DNA of 64,000 bases from Escherichia phage StefiGeyer_Bas88, in the sequence record PQ850628.1. One strand, 5' to 3'. Of this stretch, positions 1,871 through 56,619 are shown one piece after another (within the stretch, counting starts at the first letter, position 1; every line of letters starts with the position of its first letter). The translations under genes and the position numbers were made by a program. The notes beneath the pieces are model-generated. The model was not told where the DNA came from and made no database searches. It saw only the letters and a list, made by a program, of their open reading frames with translations.

Positions 1871-2674
1871 TTGGCTATTGAAACTACAGCGGTAGTCACT
1901 ACCGATTTAAACCCCCTGTACCCTCGTGACAGGGATTATATTTATGAAGGGGCGGCTCAACTCCGCCTTATCAAACAAGTCTTGATTAACACATTCCCTA
2001 ACATCACTGAACCAGTGAACCTTTCTTCTGAATCCTTTAAGGCTTTGTCAGAGAAAATCACCTTTACTGGCGATGCTATGGATGTTGGTAATCTGATGAT
2101 TAAAAACCTGACTCCGGGCACTGGTGATAAAGATGCTGTAACCAAAGGTCAGATGGAAGCTTTCATGTTGAATTGGATGCAGAACAAACTGTATCGTATT
2201 GGTGCTTACTACATCACTGAAGAAGATATCAACCCCGGTGATTCTAGTTCTCTCGGTTTTGGCTCTTGGGCTAAAGTTACTGGTGTTGTTATGGGTACTG
2301 GTGTTGTCAACCCCGATGGGTCTGTTCCTAACGCCCAACGTGTTGAGTTCCAAGCAGGCGGTACAGGTGGTCGTGTGTTTAATACAGTTCGTACTGAGAA
2401 TATGCCTCTAACTACAATCAATGGTTCTAGTTTCCAAGTTAGCTCCTACTCTCACGCACACAACATTACGATGGGCCGAGGGGATGCTAGTGGTCATAAC
2501 AGCAGCCCTAACTGGTATAGTCCGGGTGGTGGTTATACTCAAGTAACTGACACAAACACTCACTCACACTCAATCTCAGGTTCTGTTAGTTTTGGTTATG
2601 ATGATATTTCTCGTCAACCTATCAACACATTACCGCCATTCCGAGCAGCACATATTTGGAGACGTATTAGCTAA
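1871..2674 (+). CDS. tail fibre-like structural protein (TTG start)
   Basis: GGAGG RBS 6 nt before TTG; Gly/Ser/Thr-rich beta-type sequence in the tail-fibre gene block. Confidence 0.35.
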   Translation: MAIETTAVVTTDLNPLYPRDRDYIYEGAAQLRLIKQVLINTFPNITEPVNLSSESFKALSEKITFTGDAMDVGNLMIKNLTPGTGDKDAVTKGQMEAFMLNWMQNKLYRIGAYYITEEDINPGDSSSLGFGSWAKVTGVVMGTGVVNPDGSVPNAQRVEFQAGGTGGRVFNTVRTENMPLTTINGSSFQVSSYSHAHNITMGRGDASGHNSSPNWYSPGGGYTQVTDTNTHSHSISGSVSFGYDDISRQPINTLPPFRAAHIWRRIS

Positions 2675-2683
2675 GGAGGTAGC

Positions 2684-5600
2684 ATGGCTCTCTATCCAAT
2701 TAAATCACTAGGCGCAGTTGGGGTTATCGCTGACCAAGCACCTACTGACTTAGCACCAAATGCTTTTACTAACGCTATTAATGCTCGGTTTGTTGAGCAG
2801 AGAGTCTTTAAGACGGGGGGCAATGCCCCTCTTTCTTATGTAGACGAAGATAAAGATCTGACTCCTCTCTCATTCCTTTCAATGCCTTTCGACTATTATA
2901 GCGCAGGTAATAGCTTTCTTGTGGTAGGTACAGATAAGAAACTGTATAAACTTACCGACGAGAGTTTAACTGATATCAGCCGTAAGGTTGCTACAGCGAC
3001 AAAGAAAGCATCAGCGACAATTAAGATTTATCCAGTAGTCTCAAATATTGTTCCTAAAGAGACTTCTGTATCTATGAATTTTAACCAGACCAAGATTCTC
3101 GAAGTTGAAGTCACCCCTACAGATGCTCAAAATGCTAATCTAGTTTGGGAAGTAAGCAACTCTTCTTATGGTAGTATTGAAGTTGACCCTACTGACTCCA
3201 AGAAGGCTACCCTAACTTCTAAGTCTGTTGAAGGTAATTTAGTTGTGACAGTGAGCACATCTGATGAATCTATCTCAGCTCAGATTGCAGTTAATATCAT
3301 TGATGGTGATTCAGGTATCTATTTGAGCCAAGACACTTTGACTATGCGTAAAGGTGGTACATCAACCCTTACAGCAATTACAGGCAAACCATCTGTAACT
3401 TGGTCTTCCTCTAACCCATCCTTAGTTTCTGTTTCTCCTAATGCTAATACAAAGACAGTTGTTCTTACAGCTCTTGGAGAAGGACAGGTAACTATAACTG
3501 CTGATAATGGAACAAAGACTGCATCTTGTACAGTAACAGCAATACCTCAAATTGATAGCATCACATTAAGTCAGACAGACATTCAAATGAGTCGTGGTAC
3601 TCAGTACATCTTAACTGCAACAGTTAGTCCAGCTAACGCACCCAACCAAACAATCACTTGGACTTCTTCTAATACCAACATTGCTACAGTAAGTGGTACA
3701 GGTACAGAAGCTACAATAACTGGATTGCTTGCGGGGTATACAGAGATTACAGCAGTTACAGCGGAAGGAGGTCGTTCAGCAGTTTGTACTGTACGTGTTG
3801 ATTTATCTTCTCGTCTGGCAAGTAGGGCTATGTCAGCAATGACTATCACTACAGAAGATCCTGTAGAAGAACCAGTGGTTGGCTCAGAAGAAGTTACTTA
3901 TTTTGACGCTGATACAATTGGCATTGATACAACAGGGATGGCGGAAGGAAACAACTTCTACGACTACTCTAACGTCATGGACTTGGAAGGTTTTGGTAGA
4001 GCAGCAATGCTTGCTAATGATCCACCTTTGACTGGAGTTACTCTTGATGTTATTGATGCCTCTCTTGATGTAGGTGAAGAGATTGTTATCACAGCTACAG
4101 CATCTCCTACTGGAAGCTATACTTACAAGTGGACAGTTGATAAGAGTGGTTATGTTTCTACTACTTCTACAACTGACTCAACTTTGAAACTTACTGCTAT
4201 TCGTAAGGGTGAGGTTAAAGTGACTTGTACTGTAAGCCAGATGGTTCAGAAAGACTATGATGCGTTTGAAGATTATCCTTGGTATCATGCGATCATCTCT
4301 AACTGTGCAGTAGCAACTACTCACTACGAAACTCCTCAGGTTAAGGAATTCGATTCTGAATACTTCACTGATCTTCCGGGATGGGGCGAGCAGACGGTTG
4401 TTGATGCAGATGGTAATCCTTCTGTTAAGAAGTATAACTGGAAATGTGAACGAGTGAGAGCTTTTAACAATAGATTGTTTGCTCTGAATATGAGAGAGTC
4501 TAATGCCTCTGGTGTTACTACTCACTACCCTCTTCGTTTGCGTTGGTCTAACTTTGCAGAGGAAAACAAAGCCCCTCAGCTTTGGGATGATTATGCATAT
4601 GACCGAGCAGTGAGTTCTGACCTAGCAGCTAACATCGTAGGACAGACAGAAGCTCTTGAGAACGGTTATGCAGGATATATTGATTTGGCTGACTCTAATG
4701 GTAGTTTGTTAGATGTTCTTCCTCTGAAAGATTATCTGTTCGTTTACACTGAGTTTGAAACTTATATCGGCTCTCCTACCAACAACACCTATCAGCCTTT
4801 GATGTTTAAAAAGCTGTTTAACGATTCAGGGATACTTGCTCCTGAGTGTGTGGTGGAAGTTGAAGGTGGTCACTTTGTGGTAACTCAGAACGACGTCATT
4901 CTACACAATGGTGCTTCTAAGAAATCTATTGCTTCTAACCGAGTGAAGAATATGATCATTAATGAGATTTGTCTGGTGAACCCAATTGCTACACGAGTTC
5001 ATCTTCATCAGGATAAGAAAGAAGTATGGGTTCTTTATGTAGGTCCGGGTGAGCCTAAGGAAAGTTTTGCCTGTACTAAAGCAGCAGTATGGAATTATGA
5101 GTTCGATACTTGGTCTTTCCGTACGATTCCTTACTCTTACTGTATTGGTCTGGTTGATCCTCCGGTTCTGGAACGTGGTCCTATCTGGGCTGATTTCCAA
5201 GAGATCACTTGGGATGACCCTTCGATTGACAAACTAGTGTGGAGAAAAGATGCAACTAACTTCCGTCAGCGAGTTACAATCATAGGTTCTTTCTTGAAAG
5301 GATTTTACCAAGTTGATATAGGAGCTTTGGATTATATCTATGACAGAACAAATGATGTGGTTATAGAGAAGCCTCTGGAAATGAGACTAGAGAGAACGGG
5401 GATTGATTTTGATAACGTCACTAATGAATGGAATCAGAAACACATTAACCGATTTAGACCTCAAGTAACAGGAACAGGGACTTATACTTTTGAAGCAGGT
5501 GGTAGTCAATTCTCTAATGAGTATGGACACAACCACTCTACTAAAGAGTTTAGGGTTGGTGTAGATCGTCACGTAGCAGTCAGACTGAACCATCCATACC

Positions 5601-5689
5601 TATTCTATAATGTTATAGATAATGATGTTAACAGTAATGCGTCTATGAATGGTTTAACCATAGAGTTTGCTGTTGGCGGTCGAAGATAA
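2684..5689 (+). CDS. tail protein with bacterial Ig-like (Big_2-type) domains
   Basis: 1001 aa; repeated Ig-like modules such as ITATVSPANAPNQTITWTSSNTNIATVSGTG...TAEGGRSAVCTVRV; RBS AAGGAGG. Confidence 0.55.
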   Translation: MALYPIKSLGAVGVIADQAPTDLAPNAFTNAINARFVEQRVFKTGGNAPLSYVDEDKDLTPLSFLSMPFDYYSAGNSFLVVGTDKKLYKLTDESLTDISRKVATATKKASATIKIYPVVSNIVPKETSVSMNFNQTKILEVEVTPTDAQNANLVWEVSNSSYGSIEVDPTDSKKATLTSKSVEGNLVVTVSTSDESISAQIAVNIIDGDSGIYLSQDTLTMRKGGTSTLTAITGKPSVTWSSSNPSLVSVSPNANTKTVVLTALGEGQVTITADNGTKTASCTVTAIPQIDSITLSQTDIQMSRGTQYILTATVSPANAPNQTITWTSSNTNIATVSGTGTEATITGLLAGYTEITAVTAEGGRSAVCTVRVDLSSRLASRAMSAMTITTEDPVEEPVVGSEEVTYFDADTIGIDTTGMAEGNNFYDYSNVMDLEGFGRAAMLANDPPLTGVTLDVIDASLDVGEEIVITATASPTGSYTYKWTVDKSGYVSTTSTTDSTLKLTAIRKGEVKVTCTVSQMVQKDYDAFEDYPWYHAIISNCAVATTHYETPQVKEFDSEYFTDLPGWGEQTVVDADGNPSVKKYNWKCERVRAFNNRLFALNMRESNASGVTTHYPLRLRWSNFAEENKAPQLWDDYAYDRAVSSDLAANIVGQTEALENGYAGYIDLADSNGSLLDVLPLKDYLFVYTEFETYIGSPTNNTYQPLMFKKLFNDSGILAPECVVEVEGGHFVVTQNDVILHNGASKKSIASNRVKNMIINEICLVNPIATRVHLHQDKKEVWVLYVGPGEPKESFACTKAAVWNYEFDTWSFRTIPYSYCIGLVDPPVLERGPIWADFQEITWDDPSIDKLVWRKDATNFRQRVTIIGSFLKGFYQVDIGALDYIYDRTNDVVIEKPLEMRLERTGIDFDNVTNEWNQKHINRFRPQVTGTGTYTFEAGGSQFSNEYGHNHSTKEFRVGVDRHVAVRLNHPYLFYNVIDNDVNSNASMNGLTIEFAVGGRR

Positions 5690-5695
5690 CAACTA

Positions 5696-5719
5696 GGGAG
5701 CTTCGGCTCCCTTTTATTG
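5696..5719 (+). terminator. rho-independent terminator
   Basis: GGGAGC-TTCG-GCTCCC followed by TTTTATTG. Confidence 0.5.
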
Positions 5720-5738: not shown

Positions 5739-6749
5739 ATGGGTGCTGGAGGTTTTCGTAAGAATACTGGAAGAAACAACACCACACTTCCCTACAACGT
5801 TGGGTTTCTAAACAATGTAGAGGATACGGATAAATACAACGTTGCAGTTTATGATGAATTGCAGAAAGTCAGTACAGCAACTAACCAGATGTTCCAAGCA
5901 ATCGACGAGATTCATGAAGAGATAGATGTTCGTATTAAAGCTCTTAATGCAATGAACCTACAGTTTGATGAACTTGAGAACCGAATTACTACAGAGATTG
6001 AAACAGCTATTGCTGATATTCAAACACAGATGGGTAATCTTTCTACTGAAGACATTTGGGATAGAAGCACTAACCCTCCGACTAAACTAGATGGTACAGT
6101 TGCAGGTTTCAAAACTTCTATTGAAGGCAATGATTTAAAGATTCAGACAGTACAAGGTATTGTGAATGAACAAGGACAAGAGATTGCTTTAGTTCAGACA
6201 GAACTTACTGCTCAAGGTACTCAGATTGCCGAAGTGGATGGTAAGGTTACTACTGTACAGAACTCTCTTTCTCAATACATGAGACTAGATAGTTACGAAG
6301 CTACATGGGGTGTCAACTCTTCTGTTAATGGTCAGTATGCTGGTGTTAAACTAACTAACAACGGTACGAACAGCCAATTCCAAGTAACGGCTAATAAGTT
6401 TATTGTTGGTGATGGCAACTCTGGTAACACTCCTTTTGTTTTTGAAGGTGGTAGAGCTAGAATGGAATTCGCTGATATCAAGAATGTCAACATTACAACT
6501 GCTCAGATTGCTAATGCTCGAATCCAATTTGCTCAGATTGATAACGTATGGATTCAAGATGGACAGATTGCTAACCTTACTGCTAACAAAATTACTGCTG
6601 GTTCTATGAGCGGTTCTAACTGGAGACTTACAGTTGGTGGAGATTTTGTTATGGGCGGTACAGGTGGGGCACAGCTGTGGATGAATGGTAACAGGATTGA
6701 TTTCTATGATGGTGGTGGTGCTTTGAGAATTAGAATAGGGAGTTGGTAA
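5739..6749 (+). CDS. tail fibre / fibritin-like coiled-coil protein
   Basis: ATG at 5739 preceded by GGAGG; long heptad-like N-terminal half, Gly-rich C-terminal half. Confidence 0.4.
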   Translation: MGAGGFRKNTGRNNTTLPYNVGFLNNVEDTDKYNVAVYDELQKVSTATNQMFQAIDEIHEEIDVRIKALNAMNLQFDELENRITTEIETAIADIQTQMGNLSTEDIWDRSTNPPTKLDGTVAGFKTSIEGNDLKIQTVQGIVNEQGQEIALVQTELTAQGTQIAEVDGKVTTVQNSLSQYMRLDSYEATWGVNSSVNGQYAGVKLTNNGTNSQFQVTANKFIVGDGNSGNTPFVFEGGRARMEFADIKNVNITTAQIANARIQFAQIDNVWIQDGQIANLTANKITAGSMSGSNWRLTVGGDFVMGGTGGAQLWMNGNRIDFYDGGGALRIRIGSW

Positions 6750-48063: not shown

Positions 48064-48269
48064 TACAACCTCTTCTTTGAACTTAAAAAAGGACTCTCCT
48101 AAGAGAGCCAAGCTTTAAGGCCAATTAAATAGATATCACCCAATATCTGTGGATAACCTGCTCTTAAAATATTCTATCCGACGGATGTTCGAGGACTATT
48201 CCTCTCCCTAGCATCGGCCCCATACGGGTAAGATTAAATTAAGTTTAGGTTAGTTGAGCCAGAATAGCT

Positions 48270-48305
48270 CACATAGCCCTCTGATACTCACAAGGGCTAT
48301 AGATG
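48270..48305 (-). repeat. conserved post-stop hairpin element (copy A)
   Basis: ATAGCCC...GGGCTAT stem; about 37 nt near-identical to 53479..53518. Confidence 0.5.
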
Positions 48306-48557
48306 TTACTCTGTGGCTCCGTCAAAGCGAAGGATTGCTGTTGGAACAGGGATTACAACCATGTCAATCTCTAAACGGAAAAGATGTCCTGTACTTAGCT
48401 GAACTGCTGTTACAGGTTTAGCGATACCACCAACAGATGCTGAGGGGATTCGAATAAAGAAATCCCCCGGATATTCCGTTGCACGAAATACATCTCCCGG
48501 TGACATATCCTTTACTTGGATAATTGATTCAGGAGGGGTTTTATTAGCAATTTGCAT
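48306..48557 (-). CDS. small protein, PGDxF family
   Basis: SPGDVFRA motif shared with five other small ORFs. Confidence 0.4.
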   Translation of the reverse strand: MQIANKTPPESIIQVKDMSPGDVFRATEYPGDFFIRIPSASVGGIAKPVTAVQLSTGHLFRLEIDMVVIPVPTAILRFDGATE

Positions 48558-48790
48558 TACAGACCTTTCTTAGCACGATCTTTGGCAGTTTTACCAGTGC
48601 GGATACGATGGGAAACATTAACCAGCTCACCACCTTCGACGATGGTCACGCTTTTATTTTTCGCAATATCAAACACAGATTTCTCTGTGCCGCCCAGACG
48701 AATCTGGCGAGGTTCGCTGAAGGTTTGGGTTGATTTGGACTGGAACTGGAACGGCTGGCGGATGGCATCAATTGCGCTAACTTTAGACAT
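48557..48790 (-). CDS. hypothetical protein
   Basis: 77-aa ORF. Confidence 0.3.
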   Translation of the reverse strand: MSKVSAIDAIRQPFQFQSKSTQTFSEPRQIRLGGTEKSVFDIAKNKSVTIVEGGELVNVSHRIRTGKTAKDRAKKGL

Positions 48791-48818
48791 GTTTCTATTA
48801 CCTTATATTAAAGAGAGA

Positions 48819-49232
48819 TTAAACAACGAATTGGAACGCTTCGTATCCAAACTTATAAGAGAAGTCGTGCTTAAACTTCACTACACGACCACGATCACGG
48901 AAAGATTTCAGACGGCTGCTGAACCCAGCCATTGGCTCAGGGTCAATAGGACTACGAATCTTCATAGCTACAGAATGCAGCTTGAAGCGTTTACCAGTGC
49001 TACAGGCCATCATCACATACTCCATACGAGTAGTCCAGATGTTGAGCACCATGCTTGTTTTCTCCGCTGACCAACCAGTCTTACGGGCGATTTCCTTATG
49101 GATGTTAAGCTCCAAAGGAAGAGGGAATTGCTTGTTGAATGAAGCCGGATAAAGCTTGACCAGAAGATCAATGTTTTCTTTATACGTGAGGTAGGCCAAT
49201 TTCTTGCTTACGTTGGGGAATTTCCCAGACAT
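48819..49232 (-). CDS. ProQ/FinO-domain RNA-binding protein candidate
   Basis: KKLAYLTYKENIDLLVKLYPASFNKQFPLPLELNIHKEI...MVLNIWTTRMEYV...GKRFKL aligns to the ProQ/FinO N-terminal domain pattern. Confidence 0.4.
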   Translation of the reverse strand: MSGKFPNVSKKLAYLTYKENIDLLVKLYPASFNKQFPLPLELNIHKEIARKTGWSAEKTSMVLNIWTTRMEYVMMACSTGKRFKLHSVAMKIRSPIDPEPMAGFSSRLKSFRDRGRVVKFKHDFSYKFGYEAFQFVV

Positions 49233-49430
49233 TTTTGAAGCTCCAAAACAGCGCCGAAAAGAGAGGCGTCATAGTAGCTAAAGGGAGGAGAGAAGAGGGC
49301 TTATTTACTTGCCTTTTTCTGTCCGTTAATGTACCAGATAACTGAGCCATCAGGCTGTCGTTGACCGAAGCCTTTCAAGTTAACCATTTCTTCTTCAGAG
49401 TAGGCACGTTTTCTCACTGATTTTCTCCTG

Positions 49431-49688
49431 TCAATAGAAGGTGTGTGTAGAGTCGTCGTTCATAGATAACCAAACAAAGAAGACAATCACACAGAAAGCA
49501 ATAATACCGAGAATTGCAAGGATTATAGTGTTAGCTAATGTGATATCTAACACGCTTTGCAGATACATAAAGAACTGTACGACACCACATATCATTAGCA
49601 CGACACCAACAACAATGAGGAGCCAATATGTGCAGAGAAGGGCTGCATCCAATAGTGACACATATTTTGGATGATCTTTACGTTTCAC
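49431..49688 (-). CDS. small membrane protein (2 TM)
   Basis: Two long hydrophobic helices. Confidence 0.35.
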   Translation of the reverse strand: MKRKDHPKYVSLLDAALLCTYWLLIVVGVVLMICGVVQFFMYLQSVLDITLANTIILAILGIIAFCVIVFFVWLSMNDDSTHTFY

Positions 49689-49944
49689 TAACCTTCTCCA
49701 CTAAATCCAGAGTTGCTGATTCAAATACAACACCAACTGGCATATTAGGTGCCATATTACGAACGTACCCACTCTGCATAGACACGGCTCGAGAGTATTC
49801 AGAACCGTTAGAGCTTTTGTTTACCTTCATGTAAAGGGTTTGTTCTTTATCTTCTTTAAGGGTAAAGAAAGAGCCGGGAAGAATCCCCTGAACAGTCAGA
49901 GGGATATCTGCAACATGAGTCTTATTGATAGTAAGAACTGTCAT
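49678..49944 (-). CDS. small protein, PGDxF family (divergent)
   Basis: GILPGSFFTL ... LYMKV pattern. Confidence 0.3.
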   Translation of the reverse strand: MTVLTINKTHVADIPLTVQGILPGSFFTLKEDKEQTLYMKVNKSSNGSEYSRAVSMQSGYVRNMAPNMPVGVVFESATLDLVEKVSET

Positions 49945-49947
49945 TGC

Positions 49948-50202
49948 TTATTCCTTAATAATTGCTTCAGCTTTAATAGGAATAACAGCAACATCTTTAC
50001 GAGGCGCTGTCGCTCGGCCTGTGTTAAGACAGGCTACAAGTCTATGCTCGTCCGCACCCTTAATGCACAAGCGAGTGGAGAACTCTGTAGAGAGTAAGAT
50101 GTATAAATCACCATCTTCACTGTTAGGGTACATGAAGCAATCCCCAAGTCGCAAAGCACTGAGAGGTATTGAATTTTTACCTGCTGGCATGTTAACTTTC
50201 AT
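49948..50202 (-). CDS. small protein, PGDxF family (divergent)
   Basis: ALRLGDCFMY ... LYILL pattern. Confidence 0.3.
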   Translation of the reverse strand: MKVNMPAGKNSIPLSALRLGDCFMYPNSEDGDLYILLSTEFSTRLCIKGADEHRLVACLNTGRATAPRKDVAVIPIKAEAIIKE

Positions 50203-50478
50203 TTAACCACCTTTAGTTATGGACCAATTTATGAGAGAACTCTCGGAAGAATGCTTTCATAAATAGGGGGAGGGGACGAATCCTCCCATATCCTATTAAT
50301 TAATGTTGCATGTAAGACCTAACAATCCGATGCTGTAGTGGATAGCGTAAAATGCTTACCGGCATTAAACCCAGCCCATGAGGGGCTTATGTGATTAAAA
50401 TGCTCAACATTGAGCGGTTAGTTGATAGGAGATCTGAAGTCCTATCTCAAAGGACTCTCGTAAGAATCCTTCACGATA

Positions 50479-50733
50479 TTACTTAGTAACAAAGATTGTC
50501 ACCTTATCCATTACCCAGCCTATCAACATAAGGAAAGGTAAGAAGAGGATAAAGATCAGCATAAAAGGCCAGAAGAATATCACCGTCCAAATAGAATATT
50601 CATCAGGCTTACCACTCCATGAGGAATGGAAGAAGTTGTAGAGTGTATTGGTTTTGAAGCACCATTTAACTACAATGGCTGCTAACCACCAACCAATAAC
50701 ATAAATCAGGAGGACATACGCTGCTGTAACCAT
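50479..50733 (-). CDS. small multi-TM membrane protein
   Basis: Three hydrophobic segments, Trp/Phe-rich. Confidence 0.35.
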   Translation of the reverse strand: MVTAAYVLLIYVIGWWLAAIVVKWCFKTNTLYNFFHSSWSGKPDEYSIWTVIFFWPFMLIFILFLPFLMLIGWVMDKVTIFVTK

Positions 50734-50960
50734 TCACCGTTCCATTGATAGTTGCGAGTTACCACGTTTCCGTGGATAAGGAAGTGCTGGCGGCGAAGGA
50801 TATCTTTAACGTTGTAATAGGCAGCGTTTCCGATATGACCTTCTTTGATAAGCCAGCGCAGATTACGAATATCAACCAACAACATCTTTACTTGCTGTTG
50901 GCATGAAGTTTGAGCCGCTGTTTCAAGTAGAGCTTTCGTATCAGAATAATGACCAGACAT
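50706..50960 (-). CDS. hypothetical protein
   Basis: 84-aa ORF. Confidence 0.3.
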   Translation of the reverse strand: MSGHYSDTKALLETAAQTSCQQQVKMLLVDIRNLRWLIKEGHIGNAAYYNVKDILRRQHFLIHGNVVTRNYQWNGEWLQQRMSS

Positions 50961-50961
50961 A

Positions 50962-51288
50962 TCACCACTCCTTACCTGTTGTTGTCACAGAGCCACCACA
51001 CAGCTCACCACGAGAGATGAAGTCATAACGTGACCAATCACCTTGCGTCTCCATGTCACGCTCTGCATAAGCCTTCTCGTCAACAGCACCGCCATTGGAA
51101 CAAGAAGCACCAGCATAACGCATATCAATTTCTCCACTAGGAATCTTCTCTCCGCTATGCCAACGGGAAACACAGACACCTTCTACAGATAATGCACACC
51201 ACCCATCAGGACGATGCTGTACGCAGCCTGTAAGAGCTACACAGGTGATAAAGATACAGGTTAAGGTAATTACACCACCCCAGCTCAT
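50962..51288 (-). CDS. lipoprotein (Cys-rich)
   Basis: Signal peptide ending in lipobox LTGC. Confidence 0.45.
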   Translation of the reverse strand: MSWGGVITLTCIFITCVALTGCVQHRPDGWCALSVEGVCVSRWHSGEKIPSGEIDMRYAGASCSNGGAVDEKAYAERDMETQGDWSRYDFISRGELCGGSVTTTGKEW

Positions 51289-51425
51289 GATCCCTCCTGA
51301 AGCGCCTTACGGCGGCTATCTCGCCAAGCCATCCATAGGTAGGTTTTAAGTTCTTCTCTTTCTTCTTCGCTGAACAGAGGAGAAGTAAAGATATCATCGA
51401 ACCACTCATTAAACTCAGGGGTCAT
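51285..51425 (-). CDS. small ORF coupled to lipoprotein gene (not in track)
   Basis: GGAGGG RBS, MTPEFNEWFDD..., stop overlaps the next ATG. Confidence 0.3.
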   Translation of the reverse strand: MTPEFNEWFDDIFTSPLFSEEEREELKTYLWMAWRDSRRKALQEGS

Positions 51426-51443
51426 AAACCCTCCTACGTTGAT

Positions 51444-51520
51444 TGGTGCACCCTACAGGATTCGAACCTGTAACCAACGACTTAGAAGGTCGCTGCTCTG
51501 TCCAATTGAGCTAAGGGTGC
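51444..51520 (-). tRNA. tRNA-Arg(UCU): tRNA-Arg, anticodon UCU, CCA encoded
   Basis: Folded by hand: acceptor GCACCCU/AGGGUGC, D-stem GCUC/GAGC, anticodon stem GCGAC/GUCGU with loop CUUCUAA, T-arm ACAGG-UUCGAAU-CCUGU, 3' ACCA. Confidence 0.85.
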
Positions 51521-51529
51521 TGAGTTTGT

Positions 51530-51739
51530 TTAACTGAAGATACGCAAGGCCACATCGTGACCGATATGACCGGGAACTTTATGCTGTTCTATTTTCAAAC
51601 AGCGTTTACAGATACGAGATACACGAGACTCTTTTCTCTCGACTGGAGTGTCTTTAGCGTGAGTGATTTGAAGGTTTTCAGTGATCACCCACTCGTGTTT
51701 ACATCCAGAATCTTCGGGCTTTTTCTTACGAAAGAACAT
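51530..51739 (-). CDS. small zinc-finger-like protein, MIKW/HEW family (copy 3)
   Basis: Internal start MFFRKKKPEDSGCKHEW ... CKRC; related to two upstream unannotated ORFs. Confidence 0.35.
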   Translation of the reverse strand: MFFRKKKPEDSGCKHEWVITENLQITHAKDTPVERKESRVSRICKRCLKIEQHKVPGHIGHDVALRIFS

Positions 51740-51747
51740 AACACCCC

Positions 51748-51912
51748 TTAAATCAGGTCTGTTTTCTTGTGCAGACCACACACTTTACAGCGAGAGTAGA
51801 TACGCAACCCTTGTCGCTCTCTGTCAGTAAGTTTATTTGTGATCGTCAGTTCATAAGTAGAAAGATCTTCCCACTCATGGAAATGAAATAGACGTTTGAA
51901 CCATTTAATCAT
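51748..51912 (-). CDS. small zinc-finger-like protein, MIKW family (copy 2, not in track)
   Basis: MIKWFKRLFHFHEW ... CKVCG; AAGGA RBS. Confidence 0.4.
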   Translation of the reverse strand: MIKWFKRLFHFHEWEDLSTYELTITNKLTDRERQGLRIYSRCKVCGLHKKTDLI

Positions 51913-51921
51913 AATGATTCC

Positions 51922-52083
51922 TTAGATTACATCACGATGACTAACATCACCACACACCTTACACTGAATAACGTAACGTGTACCCTTGTCATTGTTCCCA
52001 TCTGAATCTGTATAGACCAGAGGACGGGTGTTAATAATCTTCCAATCATGACAATGGAAGACACGCTTTAGCCACTTAATCAT
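51922..52083 (-). CDS. small zinc-finger-like protein, MIKW family (copy 1, not in track)
   Basis: MIKWLKRVFHCHDW ... CKVCG. Confidence 0.4.
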   Translation of the reverse strand: MIKWLKRVFHCHDWKIINTRPLVYTDSDGNNDKGTRYVIQCKVCGDVSHRDVI

Positions 52084-52084
52084 A

Positions 52085-52342
52085 TTAAGCACACGCCGGT
52101 AGTTCGATTAACTGAGGAGTACGACAAGGACCCTCTTCATACACACCGATTAACGTTGGCATGTAAGGCCCAGCGCACTGGTATTCGTCGAACAGCTCAT
52201 TATAAGTAGGCTTCCACTTCCACGCCCACACATAACCCATTCGATCAATAGCAATGTAACGAGTATTCAGAGGAACCTGCATCATTACATCACCAACTGC
52301 TATTACTTTCGTAATAACTGCTGCTCGGAAGTTTGTCTTCAT
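52085..52342 (-). CDS. hypothetical protein
   Basis: 85-aa ORF. Confidence 0.3.
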   Translation of the reverse strand: MKTNFRAAVITKVIAVGDVMMQVPLNTRYIAIDRMGYVWAWKWKPTYNELFDEYQCAGPYMPTLIGVYEEGPCRTPQLIELPACA

Positions 52343-52590
52343 GGCGCTTTAATCTCAATCTGAACGTTGACAACAAATACAGTATGGTTTGCACTGTACA
52401 CCGAAGTGCCTATGATTGGCTTGTCATCGCTGAGGATTTCAACAGCGTGCTCAAGGTTAATCTTCAGATGAAGACGACCTGATTCCATGAAGAAATCACC
52501 AGCACGTATCTCACCAAACTTGGCTGGCACACCGATAGAAGGTATCAGTATGTCAGTACGACCTTTACGGTCAAATAAACGATTGAACAT
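52339..52590 (-). CDS. small protein, PGDxF family
   Basis: EIRAGDFFMESGRLHLKI. Confidence 0.35.
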   Translation of the reverse strand: MFNRLFDRKGRTDILIPSIGVPAKFGEIRAGDFFMESGRLHLKINLEHAVEILSDDKPIIGTSVYSANHTVFVVNVQIEIKAP

Positions 52591-52599
52591 ATCAACCCC

Positions 52600-52809
52600 T
52601 TATGTGATATCAACCTCAAACCAACAGGTAAGAGCTTTTTCGTTGTTGCGCTTTGGTTCAAAGGATTTAGTAACTGATAACACCCGTCGCTGTTGTCCAT
52701 CAAACCAGATAGTTTCATTTCTTTCAGGAAGTAGGTTGTGTGCAGCACAAACGATTTCACCTAGCACAACCTGTCTGCCATCTTGTTTACGAACTAAACG
52801 AATGTTCAT
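52600..52809 (-). CDS. hypothetical small protein
   Basis: 69-aa ORF. Confidence 0.3.
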   Translation of the reverse strand: MNIRLVRKQDGRQVVLGEIVCAAHNLLPERNETIWFDGQQRRVLSVTKSFEPKRNNEKALTCWFEVDIT

Positions 52810-52851
52810 ATCAACCTCTCTTATTAGTTTAAGTAAGAGCTACCTCTTAAT

Positions 52852-52883
52852 TAAAACAACAAAGGCCACCCCGAAGGGCAGCC
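52852..52883 (-). terminator. rho-independent terminator (- strand)
   Basis: GGCUGCCC-UUCG-GGGUGGCC (two G-U pairs) followed by a U-rich run. Confidence 0.4.
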
Positions 52884-52888
52884 TCTTA

Positions 52889-53086
52889 TTAAGCACTACG
52901 CAACTTGTTATTCAAGAAGCGATCATCTGCGTTATAGATGAATGCAAAGAATAATTCTTTGGCTACATCCCTGTCACAATTAAGGCATTTAGAAACCTGT
53001 AACAACAGGCCATTGCGACTGTTAGGATGATCAATTATCGCAAGACGAATAATCTCACGAATACCAACATCATGCTCAGCCGCCAT
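52889..53086 (-). CDS. hypothetical small protein
   Basis: ORF with ATG at 53086. Confidence 0.3.
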   Translation of the reverse strand: MAAEHDVGIREIIRLAIIDHPNSRNGLLLQVSKCLNCDRDVAKELFFAFIYNADDRFLNNKLRSA

Positions 53087-53478
53087 AGAACCAATCACCT
53101 TGACGTTTACGGATGTTAGTTGTCAGACGAAGCATGGCAGACTCAATCTTCAGAGCACCATTTGCTACTGCATCCATACGTTCAGGACGGTTCATACGCT
53201 TGGTTGACTTCTTCATAACGTTCTCTCTTTGTTAGTGGAGGCAGGGTTGCCAGTTAATATAAAGGGAAGCCCTACACGTTAAGGCTTCCGCTTGTACAAA
53301 CTGTCGAGAACTTTCTACCCCTAGATTGTTCTCTATCCCAAACCGATACATACCCCTACATATCGGAATGCCATTCGAAAATTAACAGGTTTTAGTCTAT
53401 CACCGGATGTTTGAGACGAGTCTCGCCCTAGCGGTGAGCCATATGGCATTGAGATTATAGTTAATTGAGGAACATCCT

Positions 53479-53518
53479 CACATAGCCCTCTGATAAGCAC
53501 AAGGGCTATAAGTTGATG
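53479..53518 (-). repeat. conserved post-stop hairpin element (copy B)
   Basis: Near-identical to 48270..48305, again directly after the stop of a PGDxF gene. Confidence 0.5.
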
Positions 53519-53743
53519 TTACTTGTTGGTCAGTCGTACATTAGGCACAAGTCTGATTGCTGCTGTTTTCCTCTCTCCAGTAACCTTACCAGTAGAGAGA
53601 TTAACGTAATAAGCAGTGACTTCACCATCACCAGCTGTACGCATATAATAACTGCTTCCAGTTCTGTCAAACTGAAAAACGTCTCCCGGCTTTACATCAC
53701 CAAGAGTTGTGACGCTTTGCTTTTTATCAATATCAATCTTCAT
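53519..53743 (-). CDS. small protein, PGDxF family
   Basis: DVKPGDVFQF ... VPNVRLTN. Confidence 0.4.
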   Translation of the reverse strand: MKIDIDKKQSVTTLGDVKPGDVFQFDRTGSSYYMRTAGDGEVTAYYVNLSTGKVTGERKTAAIRLVPNVRLTNK

Positions 53744-53974
53744 TTAACCACCAATATTCGTTACTTGTACATTAGGTACAGAGATAACTTCATGATCTTC
53801 AGGTATCTGGAACAAAGTCCCCTGACCAAGACCAACGACACGGTGCATACCCTGCACATAGGTGTCTGTCTTTAGGTAGAGGTGTTCAGTGTTATTTTGT
53901 AATCGGAATACGTCACCCGGACGTAACTCACTAAGCTTTTTAGTAACAACTTCAGAGGAGAGATTGATTTTCAT
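53744..53974 (-). CDS. small protein, PGDxF family
   Basis: ELRPGDVFRL ... VPNVQVTN; tandem with 53519..53743. Confidence 0.4.
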   Translation of the reverse strand: MKINLSSEVVTKKLSELRPGDVFRLQNNTEHLYLKTDTYVQGMHRVVGLGQGTLFQIPEDHEVISVPNVQVTNIGG

Positions 53975-55103: not shown

Positions 55104-55260
55104 GACCTGAAAGAGTGAACATGACCTCACTCATTTAAGAATCCTCTCAAAGACTCTTAAAAAAGCGGCCTCGTTAAAGGCCCGGTCAAATGACCATCCA
55201 ATAGGGATTGAACCATGCCAATGATTCACAAAGGGCTTTCCCTTTAGGTATCACTAGCTA

Positions 55261-56598: not shown

Positions 56599-56619
56599 TT
56601 ATATGTTCTTTATTGTAAG

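Follow-up and report, generated by a model that had tools for sequence, protein, structure and literature searches.

A probable structured RNA module in two paralogous copies behind small genes of Escherichia phage StefiGeyer_Bas88

Introduction

The genome of Escherichia phage StefiGeyer_Bas88 (PQ850628.1) carries a short, hairpin-forming repeat directly after the stop codons of two small genes, which raises the question of whether the hairpin acts by itself or belongs to a larger element. The stretch of DNA analyzed here (the window) is 64 kb long, and the two sites are referred to as copy A and copy B. Because the genes at this locus are all on the minus strand, the sense RNA of the hairpin is the minus-strand sequence.

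Results and discussion

The repeat and its hairpin

The repeat, CTCACATAGCCCTCTGATA(CT/AG)CACAAGGGCTATA, spans 34 nt at 48268-48301 and 53477-53510 (plus-strand coordinates), with 32 of the 34 positions identical. With up to three mismatches allowed, exactly two copies occur in the window and none in 100 dinucleotide-preserving shuffles, the chance expectation being nil. The preliminary description had rightly reported this repeat, with a low end about 2 nt off. In the sense RNA it forms a hairpin, P1, composed of UAUAGCCCU, a 12-nt loop and AGGGCUAUG; the stem has nine pairs (seven core pairs, a U-A and a U.G) rather than the seven described for it together with a loop of 13 to 15 nt, and its distance from the stop codon is 4 nt in copy A and 8 nt in copy B instead of 10 to 18 nt. 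Folding of 43- and 47-nt stretches containing P1 and its 5' flank gave free energies of about -15 and -14 kcal/mol. A U-tract after P1 is absent, in agreement with the earlier view that the hairpin itself is not an intrinsic terminator.

The similarity between the copies is not confined to the hairpin: it takes in the stop codon (GUAACAUC) and, on the minus strand, extends downstream for about 150 nt. P1 is the 5'-most helix of a long structured non-coding RNA module and not a stand-alone element: what had been taken for a self-contained motif of about 37 nt is one part of a module of 225 or 265 nt with at least eight helices (Table 1).

Table 1. Coordinates of the two RNA module copies, their parts and the adjacent PGDVF genes
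Feature	Position	Strand	Details
Copy A, whole element	48085..48310	-	AGUAAC with stop codon to end of terminator U-tract
Copy A, conserved 5' boundary AGUAAC	48305..48310	-	contains stop codon UAA 48308-48306
Copy A, P1	48272..48301	-	UAUAGCCCU / AGGGCUAUG, 12-nt loop
Copy A, P2 hairpin	48256..48270	-	GAGCU/GGCUC
Copy A, P3 (UAACCU) and P4 (CUUAA) 5' strands	48239..48252	-	close junction; partners 48154-48167
Copy A, P5 mini-hairpin	48219..48228	-	CCC-GUAU-GGG
Copy A, core arm	48178..48217	-	P6 (CCGAUG/CGUCGG), 7x7 internal loop, P7 hairpin
Copy A, P4 (UUAAG) and P3 (AGGUUA) 3' strands	48154..48167	-	long-range helices
Copy A, P8 hairpin	48132..48147	-	GAUAU-UGGGUG-AUAUC, G-rich loop
Copy A, intrinsic terminator	48085..48109	-	stem 48092-48109, then U6
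Copy B, whole element	53255..53523	-	3' end ~53255
Copy B, AACAUC	53515..53520	-	overlaps stop codon UAA 53521-53519
Copy B, P1	53481..53510	-	second hairpin of repeat
Copy B, P2 hairpin	53467..53479	-	GAGG/CCUC, loop AUGUU
Copy B, P5 mini-hairpin	53438-53447	-	
Copy B, P6 / internal loop / P7 core	53401-53436	-	
Copy B, P9 hairpin (B-specific)	53343-53366	-	UA-GGGG-UA loop
Copy B, P10 hairpin (B-specific)	53306-53333	-	UA-GGGG-UA loop
Copy B, terminal hairpin region	53255..53289	-	hairpin 53265-53289, weak U-rich tail CUUUAUAUUA
PGDVF gene upstream of copy A	48306..48557	-	83 aa; phrog_6570 family
PGDVF gene directly upstream of copy B	53519..53743	-	74 aa
Third PGDVF paralog, tandem upstream of copy B	53744..53974	-	76 aa

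Fold and covariation

The module is very probably a structured non-coding RNA of 220-270 bases that begins at the stop codon of the small gene before it. Its architecture is assigned with equally high confidence: P1 and P2 are followed by a junction that is closed by long-range helices (P3 and P4, placed in copy A); from this junction extend a mini-hairpin of 3 bp and an arm whose 7x7 internal loop is invariant; beyond it lie one or two hairpins, their loops rich in G, and copy A ends in a canonical intrinsic terminator.

Pairing is maintained across the homologous copies. Alignment A2 (23 sequences) has 51 pairs that are 98.5% paired, ten of them compensatory, and alignment A4 (17 sequences of copy B types) has 57 pairs that are 99.1% paired. 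In alignment A3 (42 distinct sequences), which leans towards structure because it is a CM alignment fitted to the model, 28 pairs are 97.8% paired as against 32-46% in slid controls, and 17 are compensatory. Independent covariation events are modest in number, since much of the covariation reflects a few deep splits (A versus B, E. coli versus Salmonella). The covariation analysis called for earlier found compensatory changes across the copies in relatives. In A3 they affect four of six pairs in P6 and two of five in P7. The internal loop between these helices, CUAGGG(A/C) / (G/A)AACAUC, is invariant at 12 of 14 positions in the 42 sequences, and a non-canonical position adjoining P7 covaries (A.G 23, C.A 16, A.A 3, C.G 0), an exchange between A.G and C.A that arose in several lineages.

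Outside the core arm, P2 shows compensatory U-A/C-G changes among A types and a G-C/C-G exchange between A and B, and P5 exchanges C-G for G-C among A, B and Salmonella copies while conserving its RUAU loop. P4 of copy A has two compensatory pairs and P3 is invariant; P10 of copy B has four compensatory pairs, and four pairs of P9 vary on one side and still pair. The lower 6-7 bp of P1 are invariant across all E. coli and Salmonella copies, its top covaries, and its loop ranges from 4 to 12 nt. The 32/34 identity of the repeat arises because the upper part of P1 in copy A is of the copy-B type in this clade. Among relatives, the half-sites of P1 lie 10-16 nt apart with complementarity retained, and G.U pairs occur on the sense strand only. 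Variable spacing and sense-only G.U pairs point to an element that works as RNA and not as a DNA operator, which agrees with the RNA-based roles proposed earlier.

The 5' boundary AGU(A/G)AC is kept despite differing upstream genes. In copy A, AGUAAC could form the 5' strand of an alternative helix, P0, with GUUAU in the 5' half of P2 (96.4% paired, zero double compensatory changes); in copy B, RNAalifold predicts a possible P0 between AACAUC and GAUGUU in P2, with one covarying position (C-G 11, U-A 3, U.G 3). Possible mutually exclusive P0 and P2 helices are found in A, B and L042, with a different sequence in each, and L042 has a hairpin of wholly different sequence at the position equivalent to P1.

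The 3' ends are more diverse. The terminator of copy A is annotated as such in phage SU7, and its stem and the flank 5' of it (UUAAAGYUUGRCUCU) are conserved between phages of E. coli and of Salmonella; phiEco32-type copies A have a U-rich tract before it, and P8 is missing in three of five Salmonella-type copies. At copy B of phiEco32 no terminator-like site was detected, other hairpins replacing the terminal part, and NJ01-type B copies have a different 3' hairpin. Thus, a terminated RNA is not a common feature of both paralogs, which counts against the function proposed below.

Distribution and gene neighborhood

Copy A matches CM R1 with 246 bits. A CM built from A types alone matches copy B at 53376-53523 with 58 bits (E ~1e-13), B types in general with 47-59 bits and L042 with 46 bits; copies A and B are old paralogs of one RNA family. 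The searches found 102 phage records with copy A and 98 with copy B; both are present in essentially all phiEco32-like phages (~100 records), the group to which StefiGeyer_Bas88 belongs. Gordonclarkvirinae have two copies and Salmonella 7-11-like phages copy A only, with four carriers among Salmonella records; the core is conserved as far as one distant relative, a Flavobacterium phage-like contig. Thus, although the window holds only two copies, the element is conserved in related E. coli and Salmonella phages, as the preliminary description had asked to be checked. No copy was found in two other Grimontviridae, GAP52 and PKM.Lu.22.1, an accessory-like patchiness that counts in favor of the function proposed below. 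Among 5426 E. coli genomes there was no host homolog. The module corresponds to no described RNA family: no Rfam family matches, and no paper describing it was found in the literature.

All three PGDVF genes of the window lie directly upstream of the two RNAs. The 76-aa protein is modeled as an SH3-like barrel, and about two-thirds of the RNA copies are directly preceded by a gene for an SH3-like small protein; in phage LAMP this gene is missing beside both copies, a gap that counts against the proposed function. Position among small early genes counts for it. The PGDVF genes upstream of A and B share 30% amino-acid identity versus 94% nucleotide identity in P1, and between phages the upstream genes are unrelated while the hairpin and the next ~200 nt stay one unit. 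A recent duplication of gene plus hairpin is therefore excluded; the earlier suggestion that the repeat marks the edge of a duplicated gene cassette holds in part, the repeat lying at the edge of an RNA module that was duplicated. Downstream genes vary by copy and phage (small membrane-like protein, endolysin, small basic protein). Copy A is 84.7% identical to that of phiEco32 at the DNA level, versus only ~41% at the amino-acid level for the gp88 homolog; purifying selection on the RNA family is stronger than on the protein genes that flank it.

Proposed function

The best guess at function, a weak one drawn from sequence, is that the module may be an early-made, stable, protein-binding accessory RNA. 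It would be transcribed within a long sigma70-driven early operon, and copy A's own terminator, the sequence of which is conserved as part of the element, would end the transcript, the last ~220 nt of which would be the fold. Most likely, the product would be a non-coding RNA that is stable, made early and binds protein, and that has an accessory role in host takeover or counter-defense. P1 may act as a 5' clamp that would shield the fold from ribosomes that terminate 4-8 nt before it; it would also cap the 5' end after processing, and is possibly part of a P0/P2 conformational switch sensing translation of the upstream ORF. We hold this explanation as a whole tentatively, at somewhat below an even chance; that the product is a stable trans-acting RNA-protein complex, with a putative protein partner, we rate at that level or slightly lower. 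A search of the 64-kb window found no trans target. Functionally, the module is unlikely to be a processing site or a terminator.

Alternative explanations

The module might instead control read-through in cis, in the style of HK022 put or lambda nut, the RNA with or without a small phage protein acting on the RNA polymerase that has just transcribed it and so allowing or regulating passage through the copy A terminator and later ones, which would divide the early operon into an immediate and a delayed part. For 7-11 and SU10, the early genes are described as one long sigma70 operon (PMC4331800, PMC4281155), which agrees with such control. Strong sigma70-like promoters are present only at 58.4-58.9 and 61.3 kb; the stretch after them has, on the same strand, at least nine terminator-like sites and no consensus-like promoter between these. 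Copy A lies directly before a strong terminator, with the ribosome-binding site of the next gene ~20 nt beyond, and the early region holds two paralogous copies, both of which begin at a stop codon; nutR likewise begins after the cro stop codon. The SH3/KOW/Tudor-like fold of the neighboring small proteins binds RNA polymerase in other proteins. However, copy B is preceded by strong terminators at 56600 and 55103, so that read-through at these sites cannot be due to the RNA, and GAP52 and PKM.Lu.22.1 share the genome plan without the RNA. The terminator sequence is conserved within the element, which an antiterminator would not need, no alternative pairing between core and terminator was found, and 220-270 nt with a junction is unlike the two-hairpin put of ~70 nt or a boxA-boxB nut. 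Read-through control is unlikely.

A specific partnership with a phage ProQ/FinO-like protein, suggested in the preliminary description, appears improbable. An ORF of this kind (48819..49232) does lie two genes upstream of copy A in the same direction, and Salmonella 7-11-like phages carry both RNA and gene. ProQ/FinO proteins prefer structured RNAs that end in a terminator hairpin and have both a U tail and an A-rich 5' flank, and copy A has all these features. However, the ORF is a borderline Pfam hit (27.2 bits; cut-off 27), and the link is not general: homologs were found in only ~21 of the ~100 phage records from E. coli and Shigella that carry the RNA, as well as in 12 records of Salmonella phages, and none was detected in phiEco32 and other Kuravirus members at E <= 1e-3. 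Host ProQ or Hfq would be equally suitable. The chance is similarly slim that the module is a ligand-sensing riboswitch of a new class or a self-cleaving ribozyme with the internal loop and junction as binding or catalytic pocket. Invariant unpaired nucleotides between covarying helices, the covarying non-canonical pair, possible P0/P2 exclusivity with different sequences in A, B and L042, and core conservation out to the Flavobacterium phage-like contig would fit such an RNA, but downstream genes differ among copies and phages, 60-170 nt of extra hairpins separate the core from any terminator, and none of the riboswitch and ribozyme models in Rfam gives a hit even at E <= 10. Stable 3'-end hairpins protect mRNAs, and P1 abuts a stop codon; it could be only a local stabilizer or RNase signal unrelated to the other conservation, or the repeat a functionless cassette leftover. 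This is very improbable and already disfavored: the genes upstream can be exchanged whereas the hairpin and the ~200 nt after it remain a single unit, seven further helices are backed by covariation, L042 keeps a hairpin of entirely other sequence at the equivalent place, and the disparity between paralogous genes and P1 argues against a leftover.

Comparison with known systems

Like the intercistronic RNase III sites of T7, the copies of P1 are paralogous hairpins between early genes, right after stop codons. RNase III needs ~20 bp, however, and P1, with 9-11 bp, is too short to be a classical site; invariance of internal-loop sequence is also atypical of such sites. GOLLD and ROOL, of large or medium size, are likewise phage-borne structured RNAs backed by covariation, but they have Rfam models and the module matches none. 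The 8,495 unnamed candidate structured RNAs from IMG/VR are also phage-borne and supported by covariation, the DNAVirus_X candidates measuring 29-151 nt (PMC10690425).

Copy A resembles the 3'-UTR sRNAs bound by Hfq or ProQ (CpxQ, SroC, RaiZ) in starting at a stop codon, using the intrinsic terminator of the upstream mRNA and being conserved more than the coding sequence. Those sRNAs usually have 50-100 nt and a single-stranded seed, whereas the module is much larger, has structure over nearly its whole length and showed no target complementarity, and copy B often lacks a terminator.

The put site consists of two hairpins in ~70 nt, and nut of boxA and a 15-nt boxB hairpin. The module differs in its 220-270 nt, multi-helix junction and invariant 7x7 loop, shares no sequence similarity with them, and is absent from some relatives with the same operon layout. 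Like HK022 putL/putR and lambda nutL/nutR, it consists of two paralogous, mRNA-borne elements in an early transcription unit, just past the stop codon of an ORF and upstream of intrinsic terminators.

The repeated hairpin

Two of the PGDVF genes, which encode small SH3-like proteins, are each followed by the same hairpin, here called P1. The repeat CTCACATAGCCCTCTGATA(CT/AG)CACAAGGGCTATA is identical at 32 of 34 positions in the two places, which agrees with the preliminary description of both stretches. A pattern search allowing three mismatches finds exactly two copies in the window, and the repeat was recovered in 0 of 100 dinucleotide-preserving shuffles. From 44 to 58 kb, every credible gene lies on the minus strand, on which the RNA reads UAUAGCCCU-(12 nt)-AGGGCUAUG, with a folding energy of about -14 to -15 kcal/mol for 43- and 47-nt stretches containing P1 and its 5' flank. 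P1 does follow the stop codons of PGDVF genes, as had been noted, but its stem starts 4 nt (copy A) and 8 nt (copy B) past the UAA rather than 10-18 nt, and has 9 bp rather than 7, with a 12-nt loop.

Intrinsic terminators consist of a G+C-rich stem-loop followed by a U-tract. P1 is followed directly by GUGAG... and has no U-tract, and it is missing from the terminator scan, which bears out the earlier view that it is not a terminator; the true terminator lies about 165 nt downstream. RNase III sites comprise about two helical turns of double-stranded RNA, and P1, with 9-11 bp, falls short of that length.

Features in and around the two RNA modules (window coordinates)
Feature	Coordinates	Strand	Remarks
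Copy A (RNA module)	48310-48085	-	
Copy B (paralogous RNA module)	53523-~53255	-	
P1 repeat	48268-48301; 53477-53510		
Arm with the internal loop (P6 to P7)	48178-48217; 53401-53436		copy A; copy B
Copy A intrinsic terminator	48109..48092	-	stem, then U6; canonical; annotated by SU7's authors
Copy B end hairpin	53289..53255	-	weak U-rich tail
PGDVF genes followed by P1	48306..48557; 53519..53743	-	
Third PGDVF paralog	53744..53974	-	
ProQ/FinO-like ORF	48819..49232	-	137 aa; Pfam 27.2 bits vs threshold 27
Island with tiny ORF	49252-49405	-	phi32_94 homolog and adjacent intergenic DNA; 86% identical to phiEco32 5873-6024
Mostly non-coding island	50203-50485	-	78% over 251 nt to phiEco32; fold z-score -3.67
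Terminator-like site in this island	50287..50268	-	
17-nt repeat	50239-50255; 50454-50470; 55129-55145		
tRNA-Arg (anticodon TCT)	51444-51520	-	
43-nt direct repeat	51871-51913; 52042-52084		77% identical
ORFs with starts in the 43-nt repeat	51748..51912; 51922..52092	-	
Near-consensus sigma70 promoter cluster	58866; 58634; 58466; 61289	-	
Strong intrinsic terminators	59655; 56600; 55312-55103; 52886; 50287; 48109	-	

Structure and covariation of the module

A conserved RNA fold, supported by covariation, starts at a stop codon in the early operon. In the alignment, the two loci stay alike across the stop codon (GUAACAUC) and for some 150 nt farther downstream on the minus strand; the preliminary interpretation was partly right but too small in scope, P1 being the first helix of a far larger element. 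Differences between copy A and copy B are largely compensatory: P2 has the stems GAGC..GCUC and GAGG..CCUC, respectively, the mini-hairpin CCC-GUAU-GGG and GCC-AUAU-GGC, the outer stem CCGAUG/CGUCGG and CACCG/CGGUG, and the inner stem GAGGA/UCCUC and GAGAC/GUCUC. The internal loop between outer and inner stems is the same in both copies (CUAGGG(A/C) and (G/A)AACAUC). Copy A has no plausible sense-strand ORF, and the homologs differ in length by amounts not divisible by three.

A hand-drawn structure of 51 pairs (P1, P2, the long-range P3/P4, P5-P8 and the terminator) was scored on 23 distinct A types, the homologs of copy A in related phages. Its positions are 98.5% paired, with 10 pairs changed on both sides, compared with 38-47% paired in slid controls. 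A covariance model trained solely on A types matches the window just twice (246 and 58 bits) and scores every B type, the homologs of copy B, at 47-59 bits. Covariation, an analysis that the preliminary description had proposed, upholds the pairing: the five helices common to all types (28 pairs, 42 distinct sequences) are 97.8% paired with 17 compensatory pairs (slid controls, 32-46%), figures that lean toward structure because this alignment was fitted to the covariance model. The B types alone give 57 pairs (99.1% paired), among them those of two hairpins that have UA-GGGG-UA loops and are specific to this type. Several candidates for a long-range helix of copy B, such as AAUUAAC/GUUAAUU and CUCA/UGGG, were discarded, none being kept in all sequences.

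The structure belongs to the sense-strand RNA rather than to double-stranded DNA, because it contains many G.U pairs, scores weakly on the opposite strand and has P1 half-sites spaced 10-16 nt apart. A palindromic DNA operator, which has fixed half-site spacing and symmetry on both strands, was rejected, as the G.U pairs exist on the sense strand only.

The internal-loop position adjoining P7 shows non-Watson-Crick covariation (A.G in 23 sequences, C.A in 16, A.A in three and C.G in none), with A.G/C.A switches inside the E. coli A types, the Salmonella types and the B types. Together with the neighbouring invariant G and A, it could form a tandem sheared G.A pair. Likeness to the 5S rRNA loop E or a K-turn is not claimed, as the pairing pattern disagrees.

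An alternative helix, P0, that excludes P2 can be drawn in A types, in B types and in a distant relative, L042 (a Flavobacterium MAG contig), where bases immediately 5' of P1 are complementary to the 5' half of P2 (AGUAAC/GUUAUU, AACAYC/GRUGUU and UACC/GGUA). The 5' segment of P0 holds the stop codon in E. coli and Salmonella phages. Sequence comparison gives P0 modest support, with one compensatory position in the B types, one-sided changes only in the A types and one mismatch in the window's clade. Should P0 exist, a ribosome halting at the UAA would choose between the P0 and P2 folds.

Origin of the two near-identical hairpins

The preliminary description had also raised a duplicated gene cassette. 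A recent duplication was rejected since gene and flank have not diverged alike: the upstream PGDVF proteins share 30% amino acid identity over 54 residues, and the P1 nucleotides are 94% identical. The upstream genes also vary among phages, with unrelated genes preceding the RNA elsewhere (in phiEco32 the gene encodes a 71-aa protein, in NJ01 a membrane protein of 155 aa and in LAMP a protein of 77 aa). In the SU7/ECBP2 clade, the P1 of copy A has a B-type upper stem and a B-type 12-nt loop, which explains the near-identity of the window's two hairpins; other A types have loops of 4-6 nt. Copy A's P1 matches the P1 of phiEco32 copy B at 94%. This likeness suggests a probable exchange between paralogs A and B. 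In phage EcoN5, a tandem duplication of about 1.5 kb carries two identical A-type copies (2690-2903 and 4208-4421) with gp89-92 and gp94-97.

Distribution and relation to known RNA families

Escherichia phages TH43, ECBP2 and SU7, which are phiEco32-like podoviruses of the Gordonclarkvirinae, share 92-96% identity with this region of the window. A search for further copies, also proposed at the outset, finds none in the window beyond the two (three-mismatch pattern searches and covariance model). Copy A is present in 102 phage records, nearly always at two places in each. The records take in every E. coli and Shigella phage of the phiEco32 type, together with Salmonella 7-11-like phages (Grimontviridae), in which identity is 70-75%. 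Copy B occurs in 98 records, exclusively E. coli or Shigella phages. Alignment to phiEco32 gives 84.7% identity for copy A (242 nt) and 79.5% for copy B (244 nt), both forming islands of DNA similarity; the gp88 homolog flanking the RNA has about 41% protein identity. Some records annotate hypothetical proteins over the intergenic gaps of the module. The family is not universal, since Cronobacter phage GAP52 and phage PKM.Lu.22.1 (both Grimontviridae) contain no match to the covariance model. Host mimicry was searched for in 5426 complete E. coli genomes, which contain 0 homologs.

Two degenerate core patterns run on IMG/VR return known phages and chance matches only. One metagenome and one genome scan yield more phiEco32-like and 7-11-like copies, chance matches and one true distant relative; three candidates (L006, L023 and L040) were set aside as chance matches without P5/P6. 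The relative, L042 (JBOFGJ010000684.1), was found with a 21-base core pattern over 185,579 genomes, for which about four chance matches are expected in 596 Gb, so that the pattern match alone is not significant. It was accepted because of features beyond the pattern, none of which occurs in the metagenome chance matches: a perfect 6-bp outer stem (P6) of different sequence (AUAGCG/CGCUAU), a correctly spaced CCC-AUAU-GGG mini-hairpin, a pair of 5' hairpins at the P1/P2 positions and, downstream, one more hairpin whose loop is GGGG. The A-type model gives L042 a score of 46 bits. The contig looks phage-derived and has a small-ORF array: the ORFs at 1900-5700 (62-91 aa) nearly all have an acidic (E/D)EENE tail, several begin with KxGDxV, and they surround the RNA homolog (3018-3226). 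No copy was found in L048, a relative of the L042 phage.

Rfam 15 (4227 models) at the gathering threshold yields only tRNA-Arg in the window, as does ARAGORN. At E <= 10, the best match of copy A is STnc100, with a terminator-driven 21 bits against the 47 needed, and copy B and L042 match nothing relevant. Full-text literature searches found no description of an RNA at these loci. A fragment of the module may be among the 8,495 candidate structured RNAs, all unnamed, that were catalogued from IMG/VR (PMC10690425). The module represents a new structured-RNA family of phages, present as two paralogs in each genome.

Neighbouring genes and the early operon

All three PGDVF genes of the window lie immediately 5' of the two RNAs, and by eye a family member immediately precedes about two thirds of the A and B copies, in Salmonella phages too. 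The family has the motifs xG[DES]VF ... NL.TG and no Pfam match; PHROGs are assigned, without an annotated function there.

In phiEco32-like phages the genes of this region belong to the early class; they form a long operon that the host sigma70 polymerase reads from promoters at its distant end (PMC4281155, PMC4331800). In the window, strong minus-strand sigma70-like promoters lie at 58.4-58.9 and 61.3 kb, with at least nine same-strand terminator-like sites beyond and no good internal promoters. A sigma70-like promoter inside phiEco32 copy A (CTGACT-18-TATATT, 9/12) was rejected because it is conserved neither in the window nor in Salmonella phages and would sever the covarying P3/P4 strands. 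The phage-sigma promoter motif TAATGTATA is near neither copy and is not enriched.

Several other features of the region were recorded. The mostly non-coding island has two of the three copies of the 17-nt repeat, which form GGAUUCUUACGAGAGUCC-type hairpins, and may be another structured RNA or regulatory region. The conservation of the island with the tiny ORF is unusual for the region. The tRNA-Arg, the sole tRNA of the window, keeps its position in all relatives, and the 43-nt direct repeat suggests that the two ORFs whose starts it covers are tandem paralogs.

Possible roles of the module

The module may be an early-made and stable RNA that binds protein and plays an accessory role; this is the favoured reading, put forward tentatively. 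Three observations speak for it. The sequence of copy A's terminator hairpin and of the hairpin's 5' flank is conserved from E. coli to Salmonella phages, which is expected if both belong to the mature RNA. Some relatives have the same operon plan without the element. The element lies amid small, fast-evolving early genes, with a recombination junction as its 5' boundary. Its conserved single-stranded motifs have no complements in the window that would mark trans targets. A broader proposal, which we consider rather doubtful, is that the new RNA class and the SH3-like xG(D/E)VF protein form a horizontally mobile RNA-protein module, whose invariant internal loop would bind a conserved cellular machine, for instance RNA polymerase or the ribosome, or else a defence factor, and in which P0-P2 competition would tie folding to upstream translation. 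Such a module would be represented in podoviruses of E. coli and Salmonella and in the phage-like Flavobacterium contig, the protein usually being encoded just upstream.

The phiEco32-like phages, which serve in therapy cocktails, are a well-studied model of how phages control host transcription. The most conserved DNA of their early region is an unannotated RNA. At 220-270 nt, with covarying helices and an invariant internal loop, retained as two paralogs in each genome and found in Salmonella phages as well, it points to an unstudied RNA-based step of early infection that could be host takeover, counter-defence or operon control. Intergenic gaps annotated as hypothetical proteins in some records can be reread as RNA, the calibrated covariance model is now usable for annotating the module, and the small size of the module permits direct testing.

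Known systems offer other explanations. The preliminary description linked the hairpin to a ProQ/FinO-like gene, which does lie two genes upstream of copy A, and copy A shows the ProQ/FinO-RNA feature of a structured RNA ending in a terminator hairpin and U tail, which Kuravirus copy B is without. The RNA and the phage gene do not, however, occur together consistently: 102 records have the RNA, whereas ProQ-like homologs were detected in about 21 records from E. coli phages and 12 from Salmonella phages, and phiEco32 and most other carriers are not among them. Since homologs were detected in a minority of carriers, the phage ProQ-like protein, on this distribution, cannot be an obligatory partner. 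These homologs are confined to the SU7/ECBP2 clade, the Salmonella 7-11-like phages and, more distantly, Erwinia and Aeromonas phages, some being annotated as RNA chaperones. Riboswitches share with the module a conserved internal-loop/junction core and covarying helices; the module has no aptamer-overlapping expression platform with consistently regulated genes, because no alternative terminator pairing was found and the downstream genes differ. An antiterminator pairing of the core GGGAGAG with the terminator was rejected, as it shows no covariation.

The main rival to a stable protein-binding RNA is control in cis of terminator read-through, in the manner of put or nut sites, which we regard as unlikely. 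The operon passes many terminators without internal promoters, and the module lies where such sites lie, in an early operon past the promoter and before terminators (PMC4331800, PMC4281155). Strong terminators nevertheless already precede copy B in the operon, and GAP52 and PKM.Lu.22.1 lack the element. The architecture differs as well: put consists of two hairpins and nut of boxA plus boxB, whereas the module has at least eight helices with a junction.
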